From IMG/VR virus record IMGVR_UViG_3300036790_000500, positions 1-64,000 of that record: a stretch of 64,000 bases of DNA. One strand, 5' to 3'. How positions within the stretch are numbered: the stretch's first letter is position 1; each line of letters begins with the position of its first letter. The notes beneath the pieces are model-generated. The model was not told where the DNA came from. It worked only from the letters and a program-made list of their open reading frames with translations, and did no database searches. This document shows positions 662 through 24,528 of this stretch, one piece after another. Source of the DNA: a virus. A program made the translations under genes and the position numbers.

Positions 662-699
662 CTCCTGCTTCGGCCACTGAACCGTGGCCGCAGTCGAAG
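662..699 (-). promoter_or_regulatory. SD-sequestering leader hairpin, copy 1
   Basis: CTTC-GA-CT-G-CGGCCAC-ggttca-GTGGCCG-A-AG-CA-GGAG, then ATG at 655. Confidence 0.85.
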
Positions 700-732
700 A
701 CCCCTCACGCTAGGGGGAGAGGGTAATGCTTT

Positions 733-972
733 TTACTTCTTAGAAACGTAGCGCCACTTGGACCACGTCATCTCGAATCGAAGGCTCTCGGGCAAGGCCT
801 TAATAACCTCATCACGAATGCTGAGTTTTCCCTGGGCTGGGCCGCCCGTTAACTTGTCCAATGCCTCGGCGTCATCGAGCAGGTCAACCGCTCGGGACAT
901 CACATAGACGTCCCAACGCTCGGGCGGCGCGGTGTCGAGGCACCCGAGCGGTTCACCCTCGACTCGACTCAC
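733..972 (-). CDS. hypothetical protein
   Basis: GTGA overlap with upstream gene. Confidence 0.65.
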   Translation of the reverse strand: MSRVEGEPLGCLDTAPPERWDVYVMSRAVDLLDDAEALDKLTGGPAQGKLSIRDEVIKALPESLRFEMTWSKWRYVSKK

Positions 973-1208
973 TTGAGCGAGTCCAAGTAACTGAGGATGG
1001 CTCGGCGGCAGAACTCCTTAGCACCGAGCGGTCCCTCTGAGGCGTCAGCGCTGGCGTGTAGAATCCGCCTGTACTCATCCGTGCTGAACGTGAGCGTCAG
1101 TTTCTCTTTGAGTTCCGTCGGTGGTCGACCGACCTTGCGCTTGCCGGAGTCCGCCGCGGATGACGCGTCGATGTGCTTGTCGTTCATGCGTTGTTTATTG
1201 GCTCCCAT
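969..1208 (-). CDS. small DNA-binding protein, ribbon-helix-helix/CopG-like with KVGRPP motif
   Basis: KRKVGRPP followed by strand LTLTF and two predicted helices; RBS in leader hairpin. Confidence 0.55.
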   Translation of the reverse strand: MGANKQRMNDKHIDASSAADSGKRKVGRPPTELKEKLTLTFSTDEYRRILHASADASEGPLGAKEFCRRAILSYLDSLK

Positions 1209-1214
1209 GTTCTT

Positions 1215-1253
1215 CTCCTGTTAGGGACCGGACAGACCCGCCTCCAATCGAAG
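1215..1253 (-). promoter_or_regulatory. SD-sequestering leader hairpin, copy 2 (degenerate inner stem)
   Basis: CTTC-GA-TT-G-...-T-AA-CA-GGAG, then ATG at 1208. Confidence 0.7.
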
Positions 1254-1286
1254 CCCGCTCAGAGAAGCGGGATGGCGCAGGCTCGC

Positions 1287-1727
1287 CTAATCGAGGTACT
1301 CGGCGGCCTTGCGAAGCGCGGCCGCAACCCGACATGACCGGGAGCGATACGCCTCGTATCTATTGATACCGCCAGTGCCAACGTGGTGGTCGTTGATGTC
1401 GGCAATCGAACCGATGATTTCCTCGAATTCTTCGGACTTGCATTGGCTGAGTGTTACGGCCATCTTCGTAACATCTCTCTCAAGGACATAATCAGTCTCG
1501 GGATGACGTCCTGTCATGGCGAAGTAGAGTTCACCGAGGCCGCAATGCATCGTTCGGACCCCGTTGGTCGGGTCAGGTCCGTTCTGTAACAGACCGTAAC
1601 AGAGCCGAATGAACGTTCGCTTCTTTGGGTCGTAGATTTTATCGGCGAGTTTCAGCATCCACTCGCGAGTGAGTTTCTTCGGGGGCTTTGCCAGGGGCCG
1701 AATCGAACATGAATTTGATTGCGCCAT
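1287..1727 (-). CDS. hypothetical protein (MHCGLG motif), probably leaderless
   Basis: TTGCGGTAGGAT -10-like element 7 nt before the ATG. Confidence 0.7.
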   Translation of the reverse strand: MAQSNSCSIRPLAKPPKKLTREWMLKLADKIYDPKKRTFIRLCYGLLQNGPDPTNGVRTMHCGLGELYFAMTGRHPETDYVLERDVTKMAVTLSQCKSEEFEEIIGSIADINDHHVGTGGINRYEAYRSRSCRVAAALRKAAEYLD

Positions 1728-1729
1728 GA

Positions 1730-2146
1730 CTAGCATCCTACCGCAACGTCGGCCGGCCAGGTCAGGCCGAAGTTCTCCGAGACTCGCTGTAGTTGTGAGA
1801 CCATCAAGTTCGGTGAAGTCCCGCGGTCGTGTGCCTTCTGCAGTTCGATAGCAAAGCCGTCGAGTGGAAGGTCGCCATTGTTGACCTCGACGTCGTCGTC
1901 CGAAAGTTCCGCGGCCAACCCTATGCCTCTAAGCCTCAGCCAGTAGACGTCACCAGCGAACGCGCTCTCCGCGGCCCCCGCACCCTCGGTGTCAACCCAG
2001 CCCCAAGCGCAATGCATGACGAAGCCGTCCTCCCTGACCTTACGGTACACGTAATTGACGCCACCGGCGCCAATCCTGCAGCGCTCGAAGCCCTGGGAGG
2101 CGAGGCCGCGGACGGCCCGGTCGAACATCTCCTGATGTGTCATCAT
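1730..2146 (-). CDS. phage hypothetical protein, paralog of 9300..9692
   Basis: QEMFDRAVRGLASQG and MHCAWGWVD identical in both. Confidence 0.8.
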   Translation of the reverse strand: MMTHQEMFDRAVRGLASQGFERCRIGAGGVNYVYRKVREDGFVMHCAWGWVDTEGAGAAESAFAGDVYWLRLRGIGLAAELSDDDVEVNNGDLPLDGFAIELQKAHDRGTSPNLMVSQLQRVSENFGLTWPADVAVGC

Positions 2147-2430
2147 TTAATCTTCTCTCCACTGGTCCCGATGTAGTACTCGCATCCCGGTTCCGAGCAG
2201 ACATGGAAGAAGCCGCCGCTCGGGTTGGCTCTCATCTCGAGTCGACCGTCGCACATCTGACACTCGCCGCCGCCGGTGACCTCGAGGTAATACCGCTGCG
2301 TGACCGGTCGGGTCTTGCGGTCAGCCATCGACTTGCCGTGGGCCCGGGCGTTGTACGTGCCCTCTCCGTTGCGGCGCTTGAATTCCGCCATCAGTCGCTC
2401 CCGCTCGTCTCCGTCAGGTTGCTGTGACAT
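2143..2430 (-). CDS. Zn-ribbon protein
   Basis: CQMC...CSEPGC; RBS in leader hairpin. Confidence 0.7.
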   Translation of the reverse strand: MSQQPDGDERERLMAEFKRRNGEGTYNARAHGKSMADRKTRPVTQRYYLEVTGGGECQMCDGRLEMRANPSGGFFHVCSEPGCEYYIGTSGEKIK

Positions 2431-2439
2431 GTCTTCACT

Positions 2440-2477
2440 CTCCTGTTTCGGGTCCGAGAGTGGACCCGTAAGCGGAG
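2440..2477 (-). promoter_or_regulatory. SD-sequestering leader hairpin, copy 3
   Basis: CTCC-GC-TT-A-CGGGTCC-actctc-GGACCCG-A-AA-CA-GGAG. Confidence 0.9.
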
Positions 2478-2522
2478 GCCGGTGATACGCCCGGCCCGTG
2501 AGCCGCTGTCGCTCTGCTTTCT

Positions 2523-2858
2523 CTACTGCCGCTGTTGGACCTGCAGGGTCGAACCCACGCGCTCCGCGTCCTCCTGCGGAAGCGCCGATGAACCGCCCTC
2601 GTCACGGGCCGAGCAACTCTGGCCCGATGGGTCGCACTCGGCTTGGCACCCACCGCATCCCTCGCTCTCGGCCTCGTCACAGAACTCGTTGACGGAGTCC
2701 TGGGCATCCGCGGCCGTGCCGCAACCCGACCAGTCGGCGCCACCGCAGTACTGCGTCTCACCGGAGCAGTCATAGACTTGGTCTGGGTTGACGGGCGCCG
2801 CCGTACAGCCTCCGACGCAAGCGACCATGAGGGACATGAACATGATTTTTTTCAGCAT
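2523..2858 (-). CDS. Cys-rich lipoprotein, leaderless
   Basis: MLKKIMFMSLMVACVGGC signal/lipobox; TGTGGTATGAT 6 nt upstream of the ATG. Confidence 0.75.
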   Translation of the reverse strand: MLKKIMFMSLMVACVGGCTAAPVNPDQVYDCSGETQYCGGADWSGCGTAADAQDSVNEFCDEAESEGCGGCQAECDPSGQSCSARDEGGSSALPQEDAERVGSTLQVQQRQ

Positions 2859-2894
2859 GCGTCCATCATACCACAAAACAACCGCACCTCCTCC

Positions 2895-3143
2895 TTAGGA
2901 GGCGTTCGTGCCCTCTTCGAGTTGCCGTTGCAGGCGCTCGGTCCAGTGCTCGTGAACTCGGTCGGCCTCGCTGTCCAACTCGAGGCGCTTGCGGTCAAGC
3001 GCCGCCTCGAACGAGGCCAGCGAGCGTGCTCCGTTCAACTGCGCCTGTACTACTCGCAGCGCTGTATCTGGGCAGGTGTCCATCTCGCTGAAGAACTCGT
3101 CGGACTCGTCGAGGTCCTGCTGCGTAACATAGAATGTTGCCAT
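2895..3143 (-). CDS. hypothetical coiled-coil protein
   Basis: Start MATFYVTQ follows leader hairpin copy 4. Confidence 0.75.
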   Translation of the reverse strand: MATFYVTQQDLDESDEFFSEMDTCPDTALRVVQAQLNGARSLASFEAALDRKRLELDSEADRVHEHWTERLQRQLEEGTNAS

Positions 3144-3150
3144 CGGTATT

Positions 3151-3188
3151 CTCCTGTTTCGACCGCGAAGATGCGGTCGCAAGCGGAA
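3151..3188 (-). promoter_or_regulatory. SD-sequestering leader hairpin, copy 4
   Basis: TTCC-GC-TT-G-CGACCGC-atcttc-GCGGTCG-A-AA-CA-GGAG. Confidence 0.9.
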
Positions 3189-3214
3189 CAATGTCTGAGG
3201 ATTGAGTGTTTGAT

Positions 3215-3565
3215 TTACTGCGACCGCGACCCAGACCACGACCCCGACCCAGACCCCGACCACGACCACGACCACGACCCCGACCACGACCGCGACCGCG
3301 ACCCCGACCCCGACCGCGACCGCGACCCCGACCACGACTCCGGCCGCGACCCCGACCACGACTCCGGCCGCGACCCCGACCCCGACCGCGACCGCGACCC
3401 CGACCACGACTCCGGCCGCGGCCCCGACCAAAAAATCCATTCATCTTCAGGAATGACCGTCCCGTGGTCAAGACAGAAGTCATAGAGGACATCCCGTGCC
3501 TCTAGACCCTCCGTCATGAGCGCATCGAACATTCGAAGCGTCTCCGCCGTCGGCGGCGCGTTCAC
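3215..3565 (-). CDS. protein with Ser-X low-complexity tail (SRSGSW repeats)
   Basis: Coupled to 3562..3810; hexamer repeats encode SR/SG/SW dipeptides. Confidence 0.7.
   Translation of the reverse strand: MNAPPTAETLRMFDALMTEGLEARDVLYDFCLDHGTVIPEDEWIFWSGPRPESWSGSRSRSGSGSRPESWSGSRPESWSGSRSRSGSGSRSRSWSGSWSWSWSGSGSGSWSGSRSQ
3220..3429. repeat. hexamer tandem repeat (CGACCC/CGACCG/CGACCA) with higher-order units
   Basis: Directly visible. Confidence 0.95.
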
Positions 3566-3810
3566 GCCAACCCCGAAACGACGTGTTCATACGGCGCGAT
3601 GAAGACCCCACCAGAGAGCGGCACGAGGACCCCGTCGGGAAGCCGTTCATGCTTCTTGATTTTACCCGCGTAGTACTCGACGTTCGGTCCGGTCTCGAAG
3701 ACCTCCGTGGCGTCAGACAGCCGCGCATGCGACGGCCAGAGTTCCGTCACGGTTCCGATGTAATAGAAAGTTGGGGTCTTGAACGAGTACGTCTTACCGA
3801 CCTGTAGCAT
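3562..3810 (-). CDS. small beta-rich (Sm/SH3-like) protein
   Basis: GKTYSFKTPTFYYIGTV...LSDA..VFETG pattern; family call is an inference. Confidence 0.65.
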   Translation of the reverse strand: MLQVGKTYSFKTPTFYYIGTVTELWPSHARLSDATEVFETGPNVEYYAGKIKKHERLPDGVLVPLSGGVFIAPYEHVVSGLA

Positions 3811-3816
3811 CTGCGT

Positions 3817-3856
3817 CTCCTGTCTCGGCCGCTATTAATTGCGACCGCGGTCAGAG
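3817..3856 (-). promoter_or_regulatory. SD-sequestering leader hairpin, copy 5
   Basis: CTCT-GA-CC-G-CGGTCGC-aattaata-GCGGCCG-A-GA-CA-GGAG. Confidence 0.85.
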
Positions 3857-3977
3857 ATGCGGTTCACCCGCCGAACCCGTGGACGGGCGAATCAGTTCAT
3901 GTTTCGGCGGTCGAACCGAGCGAGCGTGGCCACGATGAGCCACGCGAACTCGAAGGCCCGGCGGCGGTGCCAAGCCG

Positions 3978-4190
3978 TCATATGCCGAGGTTCTCAGCGA
4001 GCAGCGTGAGGGCCTCCCAGTAACTGTCCGACCACATCCAATACGGCGGACTCCAAGGGCCGGTAAGGACCTCCTTCTCATGGGAGTCAGGAACCACGAG
4101 TCCCGGACCCCAGTACGTGTCACGGAACCACTGGGTCCAGCGCCTGATGTCCAGGAGCGGCTCAAGCGTCAGCGCTTCAGGCTTCATCAC
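3978..4190 (-). CDS. hypothetical Trp-rich protein
   Basis: AAGGAG RBS, in operon. Confidence 0.65.
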   Translation of the reverse strand: MMKPEALTLEPLLDIRRWTQWFRDTYWGPGLVVPDSHEKEVLTGPWSPPYWMWSDSYWEALTLLAENLGI

Positions 4191-4293
4191 TCTTCTCCTT
4201 TCCCTCTGAAAGAGGTTTAATCGGTTCGACCGCCGGCGGGTACGCCATGGCGAAGCCGAGCACCGCGAGCAACCCGAGCGCGACCCAGGTCAC
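4177..4293 (-). CDS. small membrane protein
   Basis: GTGA overlap; hydrophobic WVALGLLAVLGFAM. Confidence 0.55.
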   Translation of the reverse strand: MTWVALGLLAVLGFAMAYPPAVEPIKPLSEGKEKSDEA

Positions 4294-4526
4294 GACGTCA
4301 CCTCCGTCGAGTCCACGTCGATGGAGCCGACGTACATCACGACCTCGGTCATAATCATCTTGCGAATGCGGCGGGCGTCCAGGGCCATGCCCATGCGGGT
4401 CTGGGAGACCCGAAAGTGACCGCGCCCGGCTGCCTCGTTTGCTCGACGCTCCCAGAGAAGCGCCGCGTCCTCGAGAGCGTCGGCGACTGTCATCTGGTCG
4501 AGCATATCGATTTCCTTGGGACCCAT
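4290..4526 (-). CDS. hypothetical protein
   Basis: RBS in leader hairpin copy 6. Confidence 0.7.
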   Translation of the reverse strand: MGPKEIDMLDQMTVADALEDAALLWERRANEAAGRGHFRVSQTRMGMALDARRIRKMIMTEVVMYVGSIDVDSTEVTS

Positions 4527-4533
4527 AGCGTTC

Positions 4534-4572
4534 CTCCTGTTGGAGCCCGCGAAACTGCGGGCCCAATCGGTG
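4534..4572 (-). promoter_or_regulatory. SD-sequestering leader hairpin, copy 6
   Basis: CACC-GA-TT-G-GGCCCGC-agtttc-GCGGGCT-CC-AA-CA-GGAG; TTGCGATAGGAT promoter-like element at 4606-4617. Confidence 0.8.
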
Positions 4573-4633
4573 GGGCGGTAAGAAGCCGCCGCCGTTGGCT
4601 TTTACATCCTATCGCAACTTTATCGGGCCGCTA

Positions 4634-5032
4634 TCAATCTTCAGTCGCATCGATGTCCTCCGGACTGAGTCCGTTGTGACACACGGGGCAGTCCTCGGTG
4701 CCGGTGCATTCGTGCTCGGGATACGTTTCCGCGTACGGAACGTTCGGAAAGTAGACCACGTATCCGAGACCCATGTTGTCCTCGGTCCAACCGCGACCGA
4801 GGGCATCGATGGCCGCAGTCAGTCCATCGAGCCTCGCGTTGTTTTCGTCATCATGAGTGTCGGCGATTTCCTCGACGCTCGCCTGCACGGCATGCAGCAG
4901 CCGAGCCACGTTCCGACCCGTGCGACCCAAGAACGCAACGCAGGTCCGGCCGAACATGCCGCGACCCGAGTACGAGAAAGGCTCGAGGACGGCATCCTCG
5001 AGTAGCGTCTGAAGCGGGTGTTTGTTATGCAT
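4634..5032 (-). CDS. phage hypothetical protein (YSGRGM..R.C and DNMGLG motifs)
   Basis: Motifs typical of a common phage family; Cys/His-rich tail. Confidence 0.75.
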   Translation of the reverse strand: MHNKHPLQTLLEDAVLEPFSYSGRGMFGRTCVAFLGRTGRNVARLLHAVQASVEEIADTHDDENNARLDGLTAAIDALGRGWTEDNMGLGYVVYFPNVPYAETYPEHECTGTEDCPVCHNGLSPEDIDATED

Positions 5033-5240
5033 GGCTCTTCTGTTCCTCCCGGGTCAGAAGCCGAATGGTCTCCGTCACCGTGTCGACCTCGACGGTCAAC
5101 AGGTCCGACTTCGGACCGACGTACCTCTCGAAGGCGAGATGGATGGCGGAGTTCGTGGCGCTATCGACGCCCTCCTCCGCCTCGAGGTCGATGTCCTGTC
5201 GCAGGTCGGCCAACTCGATGGTCATGATATGCTTTCCCAT
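5025..5240 (-). CDS. hypothetical protein
   Basis: RBS in leader hairpin copy 7. Confidence 0.7.
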   Translation of the reverse strand: MGKHIMTIELADLRQDIDLEAEEGVDSATNSAIHLAFERYVGPKSDLLTVEVDTVTETIRLLTREEQKSHA

Positions 5241-5245
5241 GCCTT

Positions 5246-5283
5246 CTCCTGTCTCGGGTCCGAGATTGGACCCGCGAGCGGAG
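5246..5283 (-). promoter_or_regulatory. SD-sequestering leader hairpin, copy 7
   Basis: CTCC-GC-TC-G-CGGGTCC-aatctc-GGACCCG-A-GA-CA-GGAG. Confidence 0.9.
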
Positions 5284-5304
5284 GGCCTCGAAGAGGCCGA
5301 CCTC

Positions 5305-5547
5305 CTAGACTAACTCTCCCTCAATCATCAGACCGGGAATGCCCGATTTTCGGAGCCACGCCATGAACCCGTCCAGGTCACTGACGCGGTCGACGAGAAA
5401 CGACACCGTGATGTCCGCGTCGTTCTTCAGCCTTCCGACGAAGGCCGGCTCGGCCGACCACTCGAGAACCTTGAAGTGGTCGTACGCCGCCTCAAGCAGC
5501 GGCCTGACGTGCGGATAGTCAGGCACATAGAACCAAGGCCTTCTCAC
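5305..5547 (-). CDS. hypothetical protein
   Basis: GTGA coupling with 5544..5855. Confidence 0.6.
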   Translation of the reverse strand: MRRPWFYVPDYPHVRPLLEAAYDHFKVLEWSAEPAFVGRLKNDADITVSFLVDRVSDLDGFMAWLRKSGIPGLMIEGELV

Positions 5548-5855
5548 GATGACGCCCACCCGAAGAAGACGAACCAACGCTCGCCCGGCTTCTTCTCGTT
5601 CGGACCCATGCAGATGCAGGCCGCCGGACCCCACTTGTCGTCCGACCAGTGGTCGGGGTCGTCGGTCAACCGCTCCAGACACTCGGCCGGTGACTCACCT
5701 TCGTCCGGGGTGACCATCTTGAAACTGCTCTTCTCGGCGATGGTTCCGGTGTACCCGCCGTGCCCGTGCTCGTATCGGGCGGCGGTGACGGCCTTCTCGA
5801 AGGCCGCCGGTGACGTCGTGGCGCTGACTCGATTCCTGAATTGATTGGCTCCCAT
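5544..5855 (-). CDS. phage hypothetical protein (YEHGHGGYTGTIAEK...DKWGPA...FFGWASS)
   Basis: Recognisable phage family motif; RBS in hairpin copy 8. Confidence 0.8.
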   Translation of the reverse strand: MGANQFRNRVSATTSPAAFEKAVTAARYEHGHGGYTGTIAEKSSFKMVTPDEGESPAECLERLTDDPDHWSDDKWGPAACICMGPNEKKPGERWFVFFGWASS

Positions 5856-5861
5856 GTCCTT

Positions 5862-5899
5862 CTCCTGTTTCAGCACCGGAATTGGCGCTGCAATCGGAG
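5862..5899 (-). promoter_or_regulatory. SD-sequestering leader hairpin, copy 8
   Basis: CTCC-GA-TT-G-CAGCGCC-aattcc-GGTGCTG-A-AA-CA-GGAG. Confidence 0.9.
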
Positions 5900-5934
5900 C
5901 CCGGCATTCGTCCGGCTCGGTCTCCCCTCTTATT

Positions 5935-6639
5935 CTAGCAGTAGAAGTCTGCCAGGGTCGGCCCGCCGTCCTGGAGGGCGTTCACGGCGGCCATGAACTC
6001 ATGGGCCTCCGACACCGTTCCGGGCGCCAGGTCCAACTCGTGGATGCTCTCGAGGTCCGGGTCGTCATCCTCGAGACGCTTTAGGAAGCCAGCCAGGCCG
6101 GTCAGACCCATTCGGGTCCAGCGATACGGCTGTTCACCCTGTGACCGCAGCCAGTCCGCCTCGAACGCGCTGAACAGTTCGTAGTCCCCCTCGATGCTCT
6201 CGTAGTGATGGGCCTCGGCCTGCTGCCTGGCGCTGGCGAGCATGCAGTCCGTGGCCGAACGAACCAAGTCCGCAGCCCGTTCCTGGTCACCCCCACAGAA
6301 CTCCAGGACGACCGGCCAGACGTCGGCCGTCTCGCACTGGGTCTCATAGTCCAGGGTCTTCTCGATTTGCAGAAAACCCTCGTCGTCCTCCTCATAGGAG
6401 AGGGACCGAAGCCGGCCGTCGCTCCAGACCTCGTTCTGTCCGGGAAAATCGTCGTCTGCCGACTTGTGCCTCGTCGGGTCGGCCGGCGCCGGCGGAGCCC
6501 CGTCTTCGACCCTGAAGTAGCCGGCCAGCGTCGCGGGCGGGTTCAGTTCGTCCACGAAGTTCGGGCCCCTCCACTTCTCTGGAGTGTAGAGCCGGCCGTG
6601 TTCCTCTCGCTTCAGGTCTCGCTCGAATTTGATTGTCAT
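5935..6639 (-). CDS. hypothetical acidic protein
   Basis: Start re-set to MTIKFERD after AAGGA. Confidence 0.7.
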   Translation of the reverse strand: MTIKFERDLKREEHGRLYTPEKWRGPNFVDELNPPATLAGYFRVEDGAPPAPADPTRHKSADDDFPGQNEVWSDGRLRSLSYEEDDEGFLQIEKTLDYETQCETADVWPVVLEFCGGDQERAADLVRSATDCMLASARQQAEAHHYESIEGDYELFSAFEADWLRSQGEQPYRWTRMGLTGLAGFLKRLEDDDPDLESIHELDLAPGTVSEAHEFMAAVNALQDGGPTLADFYC

Positions 6640-6652
6640 TTGTTCATTCCTT

Positions 6653-6943
6653 TTAGAACGGCGCCTTCTCATCGGCGATGATGGCCGCCACGACACAGCC
6701 CCAGTACTCCGCTCGAGCCTGGGCGACTTCCAGGGTGATGAGGGTCCACTTGTCCCCGTTGTTCCACTCGCCCCAGTACTCGTCGTTCCCGTCATCGAAC
6801 AGAGCGGTGAACGCCTCATCGTATATGGCGCTGCCCTTCTTGTTGGTACCGACGATGTCGGCCATCGCCGCGTCGACGTCGTCGTACGTCCGAAGCGTCG
6901 GTGAGTTGTGTCCGTCCTCGAACTCGAGATAGACGTTAGCCAT
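6653..6943 (-). CDS. hypothetical acidic protein
   Basis: Start MANVYLEF follows hairpin copy 9. Confidence 0.75.
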   Translation of the reverse strand: MANVYLEFEDGHNSPTLRTYDDVDAAMADIVGTNKKGSAIYDEAFTALFDDGNDEYWGEWNNGDKWTLITLEVAQARAEYWGCVVAAIIADEKAPF

Positions 6944-6951
6944 GTTCCGTT

Positions 6952-6992
6952 CTCCTGTCTCGGTCGCTGTTGATTTGCGACCGCGGTCGGAG
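6952..6992 (-). promoter_or_regulatory. SD-sequestering leader hairpin, copy 9
   Basis: CTCC-GA-CC-G-CGGTCGC-aaatcaaca-GCGACCG-A-GA-CA-GGAG. Confidence 0.9.
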
Positions 6993-7019
6993 GGACCCGC
7001 TCTGCCGGGTCCTTGCATT

Positions 7020-7373
7020 TCATTTCAGAACCGCCACCTTGATGAGCGCCTTGGCGCGGGGGAGGGAGACCTTGGCCGCCGTCGCGACCGGCGCCTCGAC
7101 CACCAGGCTCCGGAGTTCGCACGTTCCCTCCTCCTCGCCGCTGTCGTCCAGGAACACCAGCCACGCATGGCCCCGCTCCCCCTCCACCCGGGCGGCCATT
7201 CCCTCGGCCGTGACCGTGCAGTCGTTCGTGGTCGCCGTCCCCACGCCGACCAGGGCGTAGACGTTCGCCGAGGCCCGGAACGCCATGGGGACGTCGATGG
7301 GCCGCTGGGAGGCCGGGGACGCGTGGACGCTGGAGGCCCAACACACGGCCGCAAAGATGAGCGATTTCTTCAT
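7020..7373 (-). CDS. secreted protein
   Basis: MKKSLIFAAVCWASSVHA signal peptide. Confidence 0.75.
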   Translation of the reverse strand: MKKSLIFAAVCWASSVHASPASQRPIDVPMAFRASANVYALVGVGTATTNDCTVTAEGMAARVEGERGHAWLVFLDDSGEEEGTCELRSLVVEAPVATAAKVSLPRAKALIKVAVLK

Positions 7374-7384
7374 GTCTTTAGATT

Positions 7385-7422
7385 CTCCTGTTTCGATGCC
7401 GGGATTGGCATCGCAATCGGAG
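7385..7422 (-). promoter_or_regulatory. SD-sequestering leader hairpin, copy 10
   Basis: CTCC-GA-TT-G-CGATGCC-aatccc-GGCATCG-A-AA-CA-GGAG. Confidence 0.9.
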
Positions 7423-7443
7423 GGCCGGAGACCCGGCCTTGAT

Positions 7444-7761
7444 TCACCCCCAAAACGATGTCTTCCTCCAGACCACCGACAGCGGAACTCTGCGGTCGAA
7501 GTGCAAGACCCATCGGTAATCATCCAACTGCGCAAACGGCAAGAAGACAACTCCTAGCATGGAAGAATTTTCCCATTCCCAGACCCGACATATCGGCGTT
7601 CGGTCTGCGAGACAGCACTCGAGGCAATGCCTTCCGAACTCCTCCGCCGCATCCCGGTCCCAGGCGACGTGCGCATTCGAATGCATCCGTTTCAAGACGT
7701 CCTCAAAGTCCGCATCTCGAGCGTGCTTAGCGAGGTCACCGTACAGCTCGATGACCCTCAC
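7444..7761 (-). CDS. hypothetical protein
   Basis: GTGA coupling with upstream gene. Confidence 0.65.
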   Translation of the reverse strand: MRVIELYGDLAKHARDADFEDVLKRMHSNAHVAWDRDAAEEFGRHCLECCLADRTPICRVWEWENSSMLGVVFLPFAQLDDYRWVLHFDRRVPLSVVWRKTSFWG

Positions 7762-8018
7762 AGTCCCCTCTGCCCGAGCGTCAGGTACTCGTCTCCGAGC
7801 GGCCCGGCGGCGACTCCGATTGCCACCCACTGGAGGCAGAAGGCCGCCCAGGCGAGGTCCGCCACCATGTCGTTCATGGGGAGTCCCATGGGGTGACCCG
7901 CATACCTGAACCGCTCGTGTATCCAGTCGCGGTACAGAGTGGAGAACGGATGACTGCGGGTGTCGCGGGCCGCCGCGGTTCCGCACCGCGACCAGAGGCG
8001 ATACGGGCGCTCGCTCAC
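7758..8018 (-). CDS. hypothetical protein
   Basis: GTGA coupling to the RNase III gene. Confidence 0.6.
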   Translation of the reverse strand: MSERPYRLWSRCGTAAARDTRSHPFSTLYRDWIHERFRYAGHPMGLPMNDMVADLAWAAFCLQWVAIGVAAGPLGDEYLTLGQRGL

Positions 8019-8470
8019 GGCAGCGCCCCCGTCCCCCGGGCCACCCAGGGGAGCAGCCCCATCGCTCCGGCCACCCACTCCGCCACCGGGAGCCCGCCCG
8101 CCGCGAAGCCGGCCCCGACCAGCGCCTCGACCCCGTCGCAGAGGGCCTTCTCGCTGTTGCGGACCTCCGCGGGCCGGGCCGAGCCCCCCACCGAGAGCCG
8201 CTCTCCCAGCCCGAGCCGCCGGGCGTGCCCGGCCAGGGCGGCCGTGCAGACCAGCCGGGCCCGCTCCTGCGACAGCCGGCCCTCGTCCCACTCGGGCCGG
8301 AGCCGGAGCAGGCGCTCGGCCACCAGGAGGTCCAGGACGCTGTCTCCAAGCCACTCCAGTCGTTCTGAGTGAGGCCCGGAGCGGTCGGACCGGTGCCTCA
8401 AGGCCTGACGGAAGAGGGCCTCGCCTAGACGACCCTGCAACTCCGCCCAGACGACGGCCGGCGCCGTCAC
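8015..8470 (-). CDS. rnc: ribonuclease III, catalytic domain only (no dsRBD)
   Basis: ALRHRS, signature ERLEWLGDSVL, EGRLS..RARLV and KALCDGVEALVGA; all four catalytic acidic residues present; ends after about 151 aa. Confidence 0.92.
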   Translation of the reverse strand: MTAPAVVWAELQGRLGEALFRQALRHRSDRSGPHSERLEWLGDSVLDLLVAERLLRLRPEWDEGRLSQERARLVCTAALAGHARRLGLGERLSVGGSARPAEVRNSEKALCDGVEALVGAGFAAGGLPVAEWVAGAMGLLPWVARGTGALP

Positions 8471-8667
8471 AGGAACACCGCCGCGATGGAGTTGCGGTGC
8501 CGCTTCATGACCCGGACGGCCCGGGGGACGACGCCGATGCGGCGGCACAGGGCCCGCGGCGACTCCACGGACGTGTTGGTCAGGCCGCAGACCTGGCTCC
8601 AGGCGTCCATGTGGTCGTGGGCCTCGACAATCCAGACGTCGGTCTCCGTCTCAACGGCGTACATCAT
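8467..8667 (-). CDS. hypothetical protein
   Basis: GAGGAG RBS; first gene of the RNase III operon. Confidence 0.65.
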   Translation of the reverse strand: MMYAVETETDVWIVEAHDHMDAWSQVCGLTNTSVESPRALCRRIGVVPRAVRVMKRHRNSIAAVFL

Positions 8668-8709
8668 GTCAGGGTCTCCTCTCGCTGTTTGCTGTGTGCT
8701 TTGCTCGGC

Positions 8710-8774
8710 GGCTCCCGGGGGACTCGAACCCCCGCGGGCTATCATCCGGCGGGCTCCTGTGCCCGCGGGGAGCC
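8710..8774 (-). ncRNA. tRNA-like RNA: acceptor stem plus T arm, with D/anticodon arms replaced by a hairpin with an ACAGGA loop
   Basis: GGCTCCC/GGGAGCC 7 bp; GGGGG-TTCGAGT-CCCCC; GCGGGC-ACAGGA-GCCCGC. Confidence 0.7.
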
Positions 8775-8808
8775 GAAAACGACTAGGACGGAAACGGACT
8801 CGCTCGGC

Positions 8809-9303
8809 TTACGGCGGCGGGGAGCCGCTCCCGAGGCAGGCCCCGACGCCCGCCAGGGTGACCGCCACGGAGACCGGGCCGCAGGCCAGCCCGTCGACCC
8901 CGAGTATCACCGCGTGGGAGGCCGAGCCCCAGCGGAGGTCGTCGGGGGACCCGTCGGACCCGACCCCGACGAAGAGGGTGCTCCCGGCCGCGTCGCTGAA
9001 GGCCGCCCAGAAGCGGGGGGCGAGGCCGCCCGTCGGAACGTCCGCGGCCGGCGGAAAGAAGAGGGTCGCGTCGACCTCGCAGGTCGGGGCCGCGGACCCG
9101 ACCGGCTCCATCCCATAGAACGTAAGGGACACGGAGCACAGGGGCGCGGCATCGCCGGAGCCGGAGCCCCTGTCGGAGCCGGAGCCGGAGACGCCCGAGT
9201 CCGGGCAGGGAGCATCCGCGCCCGCCACGCCCCCGCACGCGCCGCCGCCGGCCGCCGACAGGAGGGCAGAACACGCGAGACCGAGCGTCGTTCGAGCCCT
9301 CAC
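8809..9303 (-). CDS. lipoprotein/secreted protein
   Basis: Signal peptide ending ...GGGAC; GS linker. Confidence 0.65.
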   Translation of the reverse strand: MRARTTLGLACSALLSAAGGGACGGVAGADAPCPDSGVSGSGSDRGSGSGDAAPLCSVSLTFYGMEPVGSAAPTCEVDATLFFPPAADVPTGGLAPRFWAAFSDAAGSTLFVGVGSDGSPDDLRWGSASHAVILGVDGLACGPVSVAVTLAGVGACLGSGSPPP

Positions 9304-9692
9304 GACGCCACGTCCGGATACATCGCGGCGTCGCTCAGTCCGTAATCCGCGGCCAGTTTCCGGAAGTCCTGCCGGAGGTTCGCGTTGCTGGACTCGTCAT
9401 GGGTCCGCTGGAGGGCCAGGGCGAACTCCCGGTCCCCATCGGACGTCAGTTCGGCATAGACCGGGCTCCGGACCGTGGAATTCGCGACCGAACCCACACC
9501 GGCGGTCGCCGGGTCGACCCATCCCCAGGCGCAGTGCATGACCCCGCCGCCGGGCGGCCAGAGCGTGTACTCGCAATTATTATAATAATAATCTTCGAGC
9601 CCATTCGAACCGCGTTGCACACAGCGGCGCCAGCCCTGGGAGGCGAGGCCGCGGACGGCCCGGTCGAACATCTCCTGCTTCGTGAGACCCAT
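9300..9692 (-). CDS. phage hypothetical protein, paralog of 1730..2146
   Basis: Shared motifs; RBS in hairpin copy 11. Confidence 0.8.
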   Translation of the reverse strand: MGLTKQEMFDRAVRGLASQGWRRCVQRGSNGLEDYYYNNCEYTLWPPGGGVMHCAWGWVDPATAGVGSVANSTVRSPVYAELTSDGDREFALALQRTHDESSNANLRQDFRKLAADYGLSDAAMYPDVAS

Positions 9693-9698
9693 TGCATC

Positions 9699-9738
9699 CT
9701 CCTGCTTGACCCGCGAAAAGCCGCGGGCCCAGTACGAG
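9699..9738 (-). promoter_or_regulatory. SD-sequestering leader hairpin, copy 11 (variant)
   Basis: CTCG-TA-CT-G-GGCCCGCG-gctttt-CGCGGGTC-A-AG-CA-GGAG. Confidence 0.75.
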
Positions 9739-9804
9739 ACGGCAAGGGCGGTACGAGACGGCAAAAGGCCGGCCCGCAAACACACCAATATCAGAGGGAC
9801 TTGC

Positions 9805-10122: not shown

Positions 10123-10321
10123 GTGTCTTGCCTTTCTCTGGGTGTTTCTGGGTGTCTCTGGGTGCCCCACGCGCGCGTGCACGGGGGATACGTATGCCCC
10201 GCGGACATCCGCGGGACGGGGAGGTCGCGAGCGAACGGGAGGGAACCCAAGGCGCGGGAGGCGCATGGGAGGGGGGAGCGGGGTGCCCCTAGGCCCTGGG
10301 CAAAAGCGAACTCGCAGAGTG

Positions 10322-10355
10322 CCTTGAAAGCGACCTTGAAAGCGACCTTGAAAGC
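10322..10355. repeat. 12-bp tandem repeat CCTTGAAAGCGA, three copies
   Basis: Directly visible, just downstream of a leftward TGTGGTATGAT at 10371-10381. Confidence 0.85.
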
Positions 10356-10424
10356 CGCCCCTAAGTGCCCATCATACCACAGCAAATCACAGCAAATCGC
10401 GTCTCGCCGCGAGCGCCGCGTCGC

Positions 10425-10547: not shown

Positions 10548-11017
10548 TGGGACACTTTCGCTTTCCGGTGCGCGAGGCACCCGCTTGGGACGGCTTGGCC
10601 GTAGCCTGAAGACGTGATGGGTGGCCCGCAAAGCCAAGAGTACGTTGGACGTTTTCGTCCTGGGTCAAGAGTACCCAAGGCTCTTGACCGGGCCCAATAG
10701 TTGCATTCAGTTGCTCTCTAAGTGCCTGCAAGAGCACAGAGCGCTTCAAGAGCACAGGTTTGAGAGTCGTGGTCTGGAGTCAGCGCTCGCGCCGAACGTT
10801 CAACGCACACCGTTACGTGTTACGTCGCTCGTCGCGAGCGCTGACTGCAACCCACGAGCGCATGGCTCTCTCTCAACAACTCTCTCCTCGGTTCGCTCCG
10901 TCTCCCGTCCCGATGGGACGGGAGTGGGGGAGACGGAGCGGAGCGAAGAGGGGAGGACCCGGCGAGCCGGCCTCCCGACTTCCTCAGAGAACCAGAGACT
11001 CCGAGACCCAGAGACCC

Positions 11018-11558: not shown

Positions 11559-11777
11559 TTATAAGAACTATTATACCAAATAATGAGTTATTATAATAAT
11601 GTTTTATTTATTTGTTATTTTTATTTGATGAGTTTATTATAATAAATAATGAGTTATTATAATAATGTTTTATTTATTTATTTATTTATTCCTTTCCTTT
11701 TTCCTTATGAGTTTATTATATCAAATAATGTTTTATTATAATAATGAATAATGGGTTCCCCATAAAACATCATTAGA
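11559..11777. repeat. AT-rich repeat tract (ATGAGTT(T)ATTATAATAA units) at the strand switch; promoter array/origin/terminus candidate
   Basis: Almost only A/T in a GC-rich genome; multiple TATAAT on both strands. Confidence 0.85.
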
Positions 11778-24517: not shown

Positions 24518-24528
24518 TGTGGTATGAT
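24518..24528 (+). promoter_or_regulatory. extended -10 promoter TGTGGTATGAT inside the tRNA array
   Basis: Same motif as at 2865, 10371, 17448, 25508, 27043. Confidence 0.65.

Follow-up and report, generated by a model that had tools for sequence, protein, structure and literature searches.

A family of eleven covarying leader hairpins at module boundaries in the leftward gene block of an uncultured T4-like phage

We describe a family of eleven leader hairpins in one stretch of viral DNA (hereafter the window), the first 64 kb (positions 1 to 64,000) of one viral contig (IMG/VR record IMGVR_UViG_3300036790_000500; 107,053 bp, 61% G+C). The elements are 40–43 nucleotides (nt) long and lie on the minus strand between positions 662 and 9740, as established by reading the strand and by anchoring the copies on a shared CAGGAG. 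Each ends just upstream of a start codon, and in each the Shine-Dalgarno (SD) sequence of the following gene can be drawn as one strand of a helix. The leader element is real and uncatalogued; none of its eleven copies matches a covariance model of Rfam 15 at an E-value up to 1. We put at roughly 55% the probability that these are RNA-level intercistronic elements that hold down the translation of the first cistron in each gene module.

The source is an uncultured, divergent T4-like phage. Its large terminase is of the T4 type and matches about 2,500 T4-like records, and among those listed no cultured phage exceeds 37% terminase identity. The contig is classed as linear in IMG/VR, with a completeness of 52% as estimated by CheckV, and carries 31 tRNA genes. 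Nearly all genes from about 10.8 kb onward are on the plus strand. Some 30 small genes fill the first 11.5 kb as a leftward block of their own, and nearly all of these are ORFans in Pfam and PHROGs. Within a module of this block, genes overlap or abut (ATGA, GTGA) and have no leader element. The element is present in every intergenic gap of the block of at least about 65 nt, except for the gap that holds a tRNA-like element (see below). Because the contig is a linear, 52%-complete fragment and the block reaches its left end, eleven copies are a lower bound.

Read 5′ to 3′ along the RNA, the consensus element consists of CUCC, GA, YY, G, a 7-bp stem with a loop of 6–9 nt, A, RA, CA and GGAG. 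The stem is made of a near-constant C-G pair and six variable pairs, and the loop usually begins with A. At the 3′ end the consensus is GARACAGGAG(A/G), in which CAGGAG is invariant in all eleven copies. We aligned the copies with MAFFT (alignment A1, 43 columns) and built a covariance model, R1, from the alignment. Over the whole contig R1 gives exactly eleven matches (39.9–52.5 bits, E-values 8e-12 to 3e-8), and the next-best match scores 19.1 bits. The original prediction, made from the letters of the window, had placed eleven elements on the minus strand directly before ATG codons; all of them are recovered where it placed them, with GGAG 5–11 nt upstream of the ATG in every case.

The copies are as follows, in the leftward direction of the genes and all on the minus strand. 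The first (9699–9740; R1 score 41.2 bits) is diverged; it precedes the ATG at 9692 of a 130 amino acid open reading frame (ORF) and has no adjoining G+C hairpin, a 9-nt gap lying there instead. The second (7385–7424; 52.3 bits) leads an ORF of 117 amino acids of the secreted type, with its ATG at 7373, and is abutted by a G+C hairpin at 7423–7438. The third (6952–6994; 47.9 bits; ATG 6943) and the fifth (5246–5285; 51.9 bits; ATG 5240) are likewise abutted by G+C hairpins, at 6993–7012 and 5284–5298 respectively, and the fourth (5862–5901; 52.5 bits; ATG 5855) has an upstream hairpin at 5901–5915. The sixth (4534–4574; 40.7 bits; ATG 4526) is in a shifted register, with an 8-bp stem and a bulged C, and its G+C hairpin ends at 4575. 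Next come the seventh (3817–3858; 46.2 bits; ATG 3810), with an upstream hairpin at 3860–3894, the eighth (3151–3190; 50.1 bits; ATG 3143), which has no stable upstream hairpin, and the ninth (2440–2479; 48.1 bits; ATG 2430), whose G+C hairpin at 2477–2496 has a 1-nt overlap. The tenth (1215–1255; 39.9 bits; ATG 1208) has an irregular inner stem and an abutting G+C hairpin at 1254–1271, and the last (662–701; 51.3 bits; ATG 655) has its G+C hairpin at 701–716. The starts of the genes that follow are also alike: eight of the 11 hairpin-led genes begin with ATGG, and six with ATGGG.

The evidence for a conserved fold comes from covariation. The structure has 13 pairs, and 93.7% of its cells in the alignment are paired, compared to 75.1% when columns are shuffled (0 of 500 shuffles reach the observed value). 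When the partners are slid against each other, only 32–50% of cells pair. The inner stem is thus variable and yet paired, as had been proposed. Changes on both sides occur in nine of the 13 pairs; the 2-bp middle helix, for which covariation had also been described, contributes two of these nine (UA to CG). The outer CUCC/GGAG helix, with its invariant GGAG, shows no double changes; of six departures from CUCC, four are C-to-U and retain a G.U wobble. Wobble cells are asymmetric in the structure, with nine G.U and three A.C, and this excess of G.U over A.C argues that the fold belongs to the sense RNA and not to the DNA or the antisense strand. The R.A mismatch that had been described as kept (G.A, once A.A) is retained in the eight well-aligned copies; the other three (4534, 1215, 9699) are in a shifted register.

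In addition to the element itself, eight of 11 copies have a G+C clamp hairpin of 5–7 pairs, whose end lies -1 to +2 nt from the CUCC box. A hairpin of this kind had been reported for most copies, and the four cited as examples (those of the second, third, fifth and tenth copies) have exactly the coordinates given for them. The resulting two-hairpin units have fold z-scores of -4.1 to -5.6 relative to shuffled sequences. To describe SD accessibility we folded 70 nt of leader together with 20 nt of coding sequence. In these folds the mean unpaired probability of GGAG is 0.13 in the eleven leaders (range 0.002–0.31), in contrast to a mean of 0.44 for the SDs found in front of 14 further block genes. 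Masking of the SD by the leader hairpins is supported in silico by this difference, and it depends on the 4-bp helix, which closes a 2×2 loop. The claim that the outer CTCC pairs with the SD is upheld as far as predicted masking goes, but not by double changes. As intrinsic terminators the clamp hairpins were considered and set aside, since the coding strand has no U tract.

Are the elements promoters? In the region as a whole, the totals of a sigma-70 scan are at chance level. No copy contains a -35/-10 match, although the promoter rules of the host may differ. Other sites look more like promoters. The 9-mer TGGTATGAT, an extended -10 word, has five exact sites in the contig, at 24520(+), 25505(+), 17456(-), 10379(-) and 2873(-), against about 0.3 expected from base composition, and each site faces a gene or the tRNA cluster. 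It is likely a host-type promoter class of this phage, with no conserved -35 visible. One exact match (10371–10379, minus strand) faces the block and is the likely start of a polycistronic transcript. The second match in the block (2865–2873, minus strand) precedes a lipoprotein gene at 2858 that has no leader hairpin. Further promoter-like units, of the extended -10 kind and repeated on both strands, make up an AT-rich island at 11570–11775 (TGGTATAAT at 11578 and TGATATAAT at 11723, both on the minus strand). This island looks like a divergent cluster of strong promoters that heads both the leftward block and the rightward genes; its units are of the type AACATTATT...TGGTATAAT / TGATATAAT, in a genome of 61% G+C. 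Minus-strand promoter-like sites for the block are found only at 11723, 11578, 10379 and 2873.

Judged from the layout of these sites, the block is most simply read as one long leftward transcript, driven by a few host-type promoters and containing the eleven elements. With separate TGGTATGAT promoters and a block that looks polycistronic, an RNA-level role at module boundaries is therefore likelier than a promoter role. Spacing points the same way: the distance from clamp hairpin to SD is only about 30 nt, which is too short for the element to be a promoter plus a leader.

Several other identities were considered and rejected. A sigma-70 promoter inside the element was dismissed on the lack of any -35/-10 pair and on the location of the TGGTATGAT promoters elsewhere. 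The GG-N10-GC spacing of a sigma-54 promoter fits two of the four copies read by eye, and one copy has no GC. The T4-type late promoter TATAAATA is absent from the whole contig and close variants are absent outside the AT-rich island, which speaks against a T4 late or middle promoter within the hairpin, with the proviso that TATAAATA is the T4 consensus and may not be the late-promoter consensus of this phage. A kink-turn would need a 3-nt bulge and then GA, which on reading is present in neither strand. An integron attC site was rejected on three counts: GTTRRRY/RYYYAAC cores are lacking, the length is just 40 nt, and the element goes with the downstream start and not with the end of the upstream gene. 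The 5′ arm, CCGAYYGC, shows no enrichment upstream of plus-strand genes.

The layout of the elements nevertheless resembles that of the promoter early stem-loop (PeSL) cassettes of T4-like phages (PMC2839356, PMC4122927). In both cases repeated composite units precede ORFans, those of the PeSLs in plastic regions of the genome; a G/C stem-loop opens each unit, and its 3′ side carries the SD and start codon. It can thus be argued that they are DNA cassettes which shuffle ORFans by recombination, the conserved 40 nt being a promoter for a polymerase of modified or unknown specificity. The order of stem-loop, conserved segment, SD and start codon in an ORFan-rich T4-like region (PMC4122927) fits this idea, as do the sister copies e6943 and e3810, in which similarity ends at the element while the flanks differ. 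So does the sequence ATGGGAGCCAAT (Met-Gly-Ala-Asn), which is common to the genes at 5855 (5844–5855) and 1208 (1197–1208), both on the minus strand, through their first four codons; in some copies the repeated unit therefore reaches into the coding start. However, PeSLs carry a sigma-70-like -35/N17/-10 promoter between stem-loop and SD, and here a covarying hairpin occupies that place. The lack of a -35/-10 pair in any copy, the clear TGGTATGAT promoters elsewhere in the block, the short clamp-to-SD distance, the sigma-54 spacing in just two of four copies and the absence of TATAAATA all speak against a promoter, and the middle of the element varies yet remains paired, with G.U on the sense strand only. 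No phage RNA polymerase is matched in the contig by Pfam, in a search whose controls were silent and on a contig of about half a genome. We regard promoter cassettes as quite improbable; recombination could be a secondary consequence of the repeats.

What is shown directly is the fold with its covariation, where it lies, the masking in silico, and that the element lacks a sigma-70 promoter; these speak for the RNA-level reading. Some observations weigh against it. The outer helix has just 4 bp and shows no compensatory change. Some copies are close sister pairs, up to 86% identical, and the number of independent compensatory events is therefore smaller than the number of copies would suggest. 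The family is known from one incomplete contig, so that its evolutionary support comes from paralogous copies only. Finally, the rules applied in the promoter scan may not be those of the host, and there the clamp hairpins could be terminators, a possibility that would require a promoter in each element.

How might such elements act? In the reading that we favour, all eleven are cis-acting RNA signals in a long leftward, probably early, polycistronic transcript. Each module boundary would consist of a G+C clamp hairpin followed by a hairpin that has the SD GGAG as its 3′ strand and, as its 5′ strand, CUCC, a copy of the anti-Shine-Dalgarno core. The translation of all eleven modules would in this way be kept low together. 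The lower helix (CUCC / G.A, A.C / two pairs / R.A), with its invariant unpaired C and A, would be the recognition surface; because the upper stem varies freely while the lower helix is conserved, one trans-acting factor may read the latter. The leading candidate would be a double-strand-specific nuclease, from the host or from the phage, and the alternative a binding repressor. With a nuclease, the most likely outcome would be a 3′-side cut in the internal loop, which lies about 10 bp beneath the apical loop. The upstream RNA left by such a cut would end in stable hairpins, and the downstream RNA would begin with an exposed SD, much as at the T7 R sites. We infer polycistronic transcription, the trans factor, cleavage and the direction of the effect from the arrangement of the elements; cleavage by some RNase III-type enzyme is a tentative part of the picture, possible but less than probable.

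Phage T7 offers the closest parallel to such cleavage. Counting 13 pairs and three non-canonical positions, the element amounts to 16 bp-equivalents, and to 21–23 only if it is stacked on the clamp hairpin. About 10 of these bp-equivalents lie above the C-A loop, and the T7 sites R0.3 to R1.3 fold with upper stems of 9–12 bp. By analogy, the geometry is comparable to that of the T7 sites, which Dunn and Studier reportedly found in 1983 to be cut just 3′ of their upper stems. As in T7 (R0.3, R0.5, R1, R1.1, R1.3) and SP82, similar irregular hairpins occupy intercistronic gaps of a polycistronic early transcript, here a presumed one: all eleven elements lie in gaps between modules on one strand, the next start codon is a short distance away, an internal loop lies below an upper stem of ~10 bp, and an upstream cleavage product would end in a hairpin. 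There are also differences. The upper stem is conserved in T7 (AAGGUC.../...GGCCUU), whereas here it is variable and the lower helix is conserved; the SD of T7 lies outside the helix or loosely within it, whereas here it is the 3′ strand of the helix; and with 16 bp-equivalents the helix is shorter than at T7 sites.

The conserved lower helix also bears on two explanations that involve no nuclease acting on the element. The first is that the elements are operators of a translational repressor (RegA-like, coat-protein-like or the host CsrA) which binds the lower helix and ACAGGAG and shuts off early genes. Conserved unpaired nucleotides and an invariant CAGGAG do resemble protein operators, and the CAGGA core resembles CsrA/Rsm sites. 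CsrA sites, however, usually show GGA in a hairpin loop and come in pairs, and neither the apical loops nor the clamp loops here have GGA. A homologue of RegA was not found in the contig (the controls of this search were silent), nor was CsrA (its controls were positive), and no candidate protein has been identified. A repressor thus seems very improbable.

The second explanation is that the hairpins are passive cis elements without a dedicated factor: they would be barriers against exonucleases and endonucleases, the latter for example of the RegB type, which cuts unpaired GGAG, and would lower and equalise the translation of first cistrons. T4 RegB cuts GGAG plus A-rich sequence in the SDs of early genes, a cut that secondary structure guards against (PMC3014915). 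Our leaders do read GGAG followed by purines, mostly A, and the hairpins are stable. Passive elements would leave unexplained, however, why the unpaired C-A is invariant, why the R.A mismatch is kept and why the GAYYGC/GARA lower helix is conserved while the upper stem drifts. In the contig, which is half a genome, a search with silent controls found no RegB homologue. We consider elements of this passive kind unlikely.

If a factor does read the lower helix, one candidate is encoded in the block itself. A 151 amino acid ORF at 8018–8470 on the minus strand, with a GTG start that overlaps the upstream stop, encodes an RNase III catalytic domain (Pfam PF00636, 1.3e-19; PF14622, 3.4e-19). Its only NCBIfam match is TIGR02191, the classical RNase III model, at positions 13–133 of 219. 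The acidic residues of ERLEWLGD and CDGVEAL align with the invariant columns of classical RNase III (signature ERLEFLGD, D..E). The double-stranded RNA-binding domain (dsRBD; PF00035) is not matched in this ORF or in the next two ORFs downstream, and the protein ends about 20 amino acids past the catalytic domain. The phage thus carries, as had been stated, a complete catalytic domain without a dsRBD. In the public annotation the gene (P0001, 102 amino acids) begins at an internal GTG, so that the ERLEWLGD signature is missing; since homology begins at residue 17–18 of the longer ORF, we favour the GTG at 8470 as the start. The gene occurs once in the contig and is the second of a four-gene overlapping unit from 8667 to 7444, which has no leader hairpin and whose SD is predicted to be 0.53 unpaired.

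The closest homologues of this protein are three short proteins (P0002 to P0004; 145–159 amino acids, 45–46% identity), followed by bacterial rnc proteins of 222–240 amino acids with a dsRBD (41–50% identity). Together with the TIGR02191 match, the rnc homologues indicate a truncated classical RNase III and not a member of the Mini-III lineage. In having a stand-alone catalytic domain it resembles Mini-III (MrnC) and the truncated E. coli RNase III (PMC3867540, PMC4357697); unlike Mini-III, it groups by sequence with classical RNase III. In an alignment of the short homologues (A2), P0002 and P0004 have Asn at the position of the second catalytic Asp (LGNALEAL), and to judge from this substitution the clade may include inactive members that only bind RNA.

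Upstream of the RNase III operon lies a tRNA-like element (8710–8774, minus strand). Of the parts of a tRNA it has the acceptor stem, of 7 bp, and a canonical T arm, but neither a D nor an anticodon arm, and ARAGORN makes no call; it gives a weak mascRNA-like match in Rfam and a fold z-score of -2.6. It lies about 40 nt before the operon, in the block's one long gap without a leader hairpin, and carries ACAGGAG centrally. The tRNA-like element may be a punctuation signal for RNase P/Z.

The original prediction combined the enzyme and the hairpins: the phage would carry its own RNase III and a matched set of sites, and the accumulating enzyme would unlock or destroy each module, as a self-contained timing switch. 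Several facts are compatible with this scenario. The domain is catalytically complete and encoded in the same leftward block. Its own unit is among the few of the block that are unlocked (an SD 0.53 unpaired) and follows the tRNA-like element, as an enzyme that is made first would need. The helix dimensions and the internal loop are compatible with RNase III substrates, many cellular examples of which are under about 20 bp, with internal loops giving single-strand cuts (PMC3867540), and the loss of a dsRBD need not abolish activity or site specificity (PMC3867540, PMC4357697). A more specific version holds that a dsRBD-less RNase III of bacterial origin co-evolved with eleven or more leaders that mimic the anti-SD sequence, that the accumulated enzyme cuts at the C-A loop and so frees all early SDs at once, and that the tRNA-like element exempts the enzyme's own operon.

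What ties the elements to the phage RNase III, however, is co-location only. The lower stem has only 4 bp. The host very probably has an RNase III of its own, and it is the host RNase III that serves T7, lambda and SP82. In T7 the cleavage by the host enzyme is tuned by the T7 kinase (PMC4858673). The Asn in P0002 and P0004 shows that the small clade is not uniformly catalytic. The gene is also frequent in viral contigs: RNase III homologues in IMG/VR give more than 560 confirmed matches, including giant viruses and jumbo phages, and a private substrate set is therefore not needed to explain its presence. Turnover of double-stranded RNA, or the processing of the 31-tRNA cluster, would suffice.

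The predicted co-occurrence of the motif with RNase III was not seen in the sequences scanned either. Around the 80 best viral RNase III loci, R1 gave no match in the 10-kb flanks (1.29 Mb); the 80 best metagenomic RNase III loci (0.70 Mb) gave nothing real, with one match of 20.7 bits (E-value 0.036). By local tblastn, most of the RNase III loci collected hold a full-length rnc gene with a dsRBD. Of five whole phage records linked to this one by their terminase, none contains a match; among them are the two nearest phages (64–68% terminase identity), fragments of 19 kb and 52 kb that lack the motif. In 151 Patescibacteria genomes R1 again finds no match. When IMG/VR and 185,579 species genomes were scanned with strict patterns, the only returns were single chance matches without the central stem, and queries of IMG/VR with one protein at a time, the RNase III or a motif-led ORF, found nothing. 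In the searches made, no relative carrying a homologous early block was found, so that these scans do not refute the co-occurrence. Overall we think it doubtful that the phage RNase III is the dedicated enzyme of these elements, and give the co-evolved, bacterium-derived version equally little credence.

Two other phage systems invite comparison. In T4, hairpins that mask the SDs of genes e, soc, 49 and I-TevI silence early transcripts that read through them (PMC3014915). T4 belongs to the same phage group, and in both cases the SD or AUG is held in a helix. But the T4 ribosome-binding site (RBS) hairpins are single and unrelated, and each is relieved by an internal late promoter; here a single conserved family has eleven members, and TATAAATA is lacking in the element as in the contig. 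The start-associated sequences (SAS) and extended SAS (ESAS) of Cluster K mycobacteriophages (PMC3203893) are likewise conserved asymmetric repeats that overlap the SD at a subset of starts. There are 11–19 SAS copies per genome, half of them with inverted repeats directly upstream, and their function is thought to be translational (PMC3203893). Their 13-bp consensus, GGGATAGGAGCCC, is not matched by the GARACAGGAG(A/G) of our elements. In ESAS, moreover, the sequence of the inverted-repeat arms is conserved, whereas our elements have variable, covarying arms and an explicit anti-SD pairing.

Some further features of the block deserve mention. The paralogous ORFs 9303–9692 and 1733–2146, both on the minus strand, share 39% identity (E-value 2e-23) and belong to phrog_17693; one is hairpin-led and the other internal to a module, and duplications therefore do not track element boundaries. 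ORF 3215–3565 (minus strand) has a C-terminal half that is a low-complexity Ser/Gly/Arg/Trp repeat (units of the SWSGSRS type), encoded by a GGTCGG/GGTCGC tandem repeat. A nearly perfect long hairpin at 10880–10955 (-49.7 kcal/mol, z-score -5.1) follows the first leftward gene (11461–11021); it surfaced as spurious microRNA-like Rfam matches on both strands and may be a terminator or a processing stalk. Untranslated leaders contain short direct repeats at 10322–10355, 10135–10164 and 9732–9762 (minus strand), of three kinds: GCTTTCAAGG in three copies with 12-nt spacing, three tandem copies of CACCCAGARA, and two copies of GCCGTCTCGTAC.

Control elements of this general kind are already known from other phages. 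The elements described here extend a series that runs from the T7 R sites through the T4 RBS hairpins and the PeSLs to SAS/ESAS, with the difference that the conserved core is an RNA structure and not a promoter. If our reading is true, a clamp and an anti-SD hairpin would together form a portable module of ~60 nt that insulates cistrons in a long phage transcript and places many unrelated genes under one post-transcriptional control. Such a module would be relevant to the timing of phage gene expression and as a part for synthetic biology. The really new element, if it proved true, would be the proposed tie to an RNase III encoded by the phage itself.

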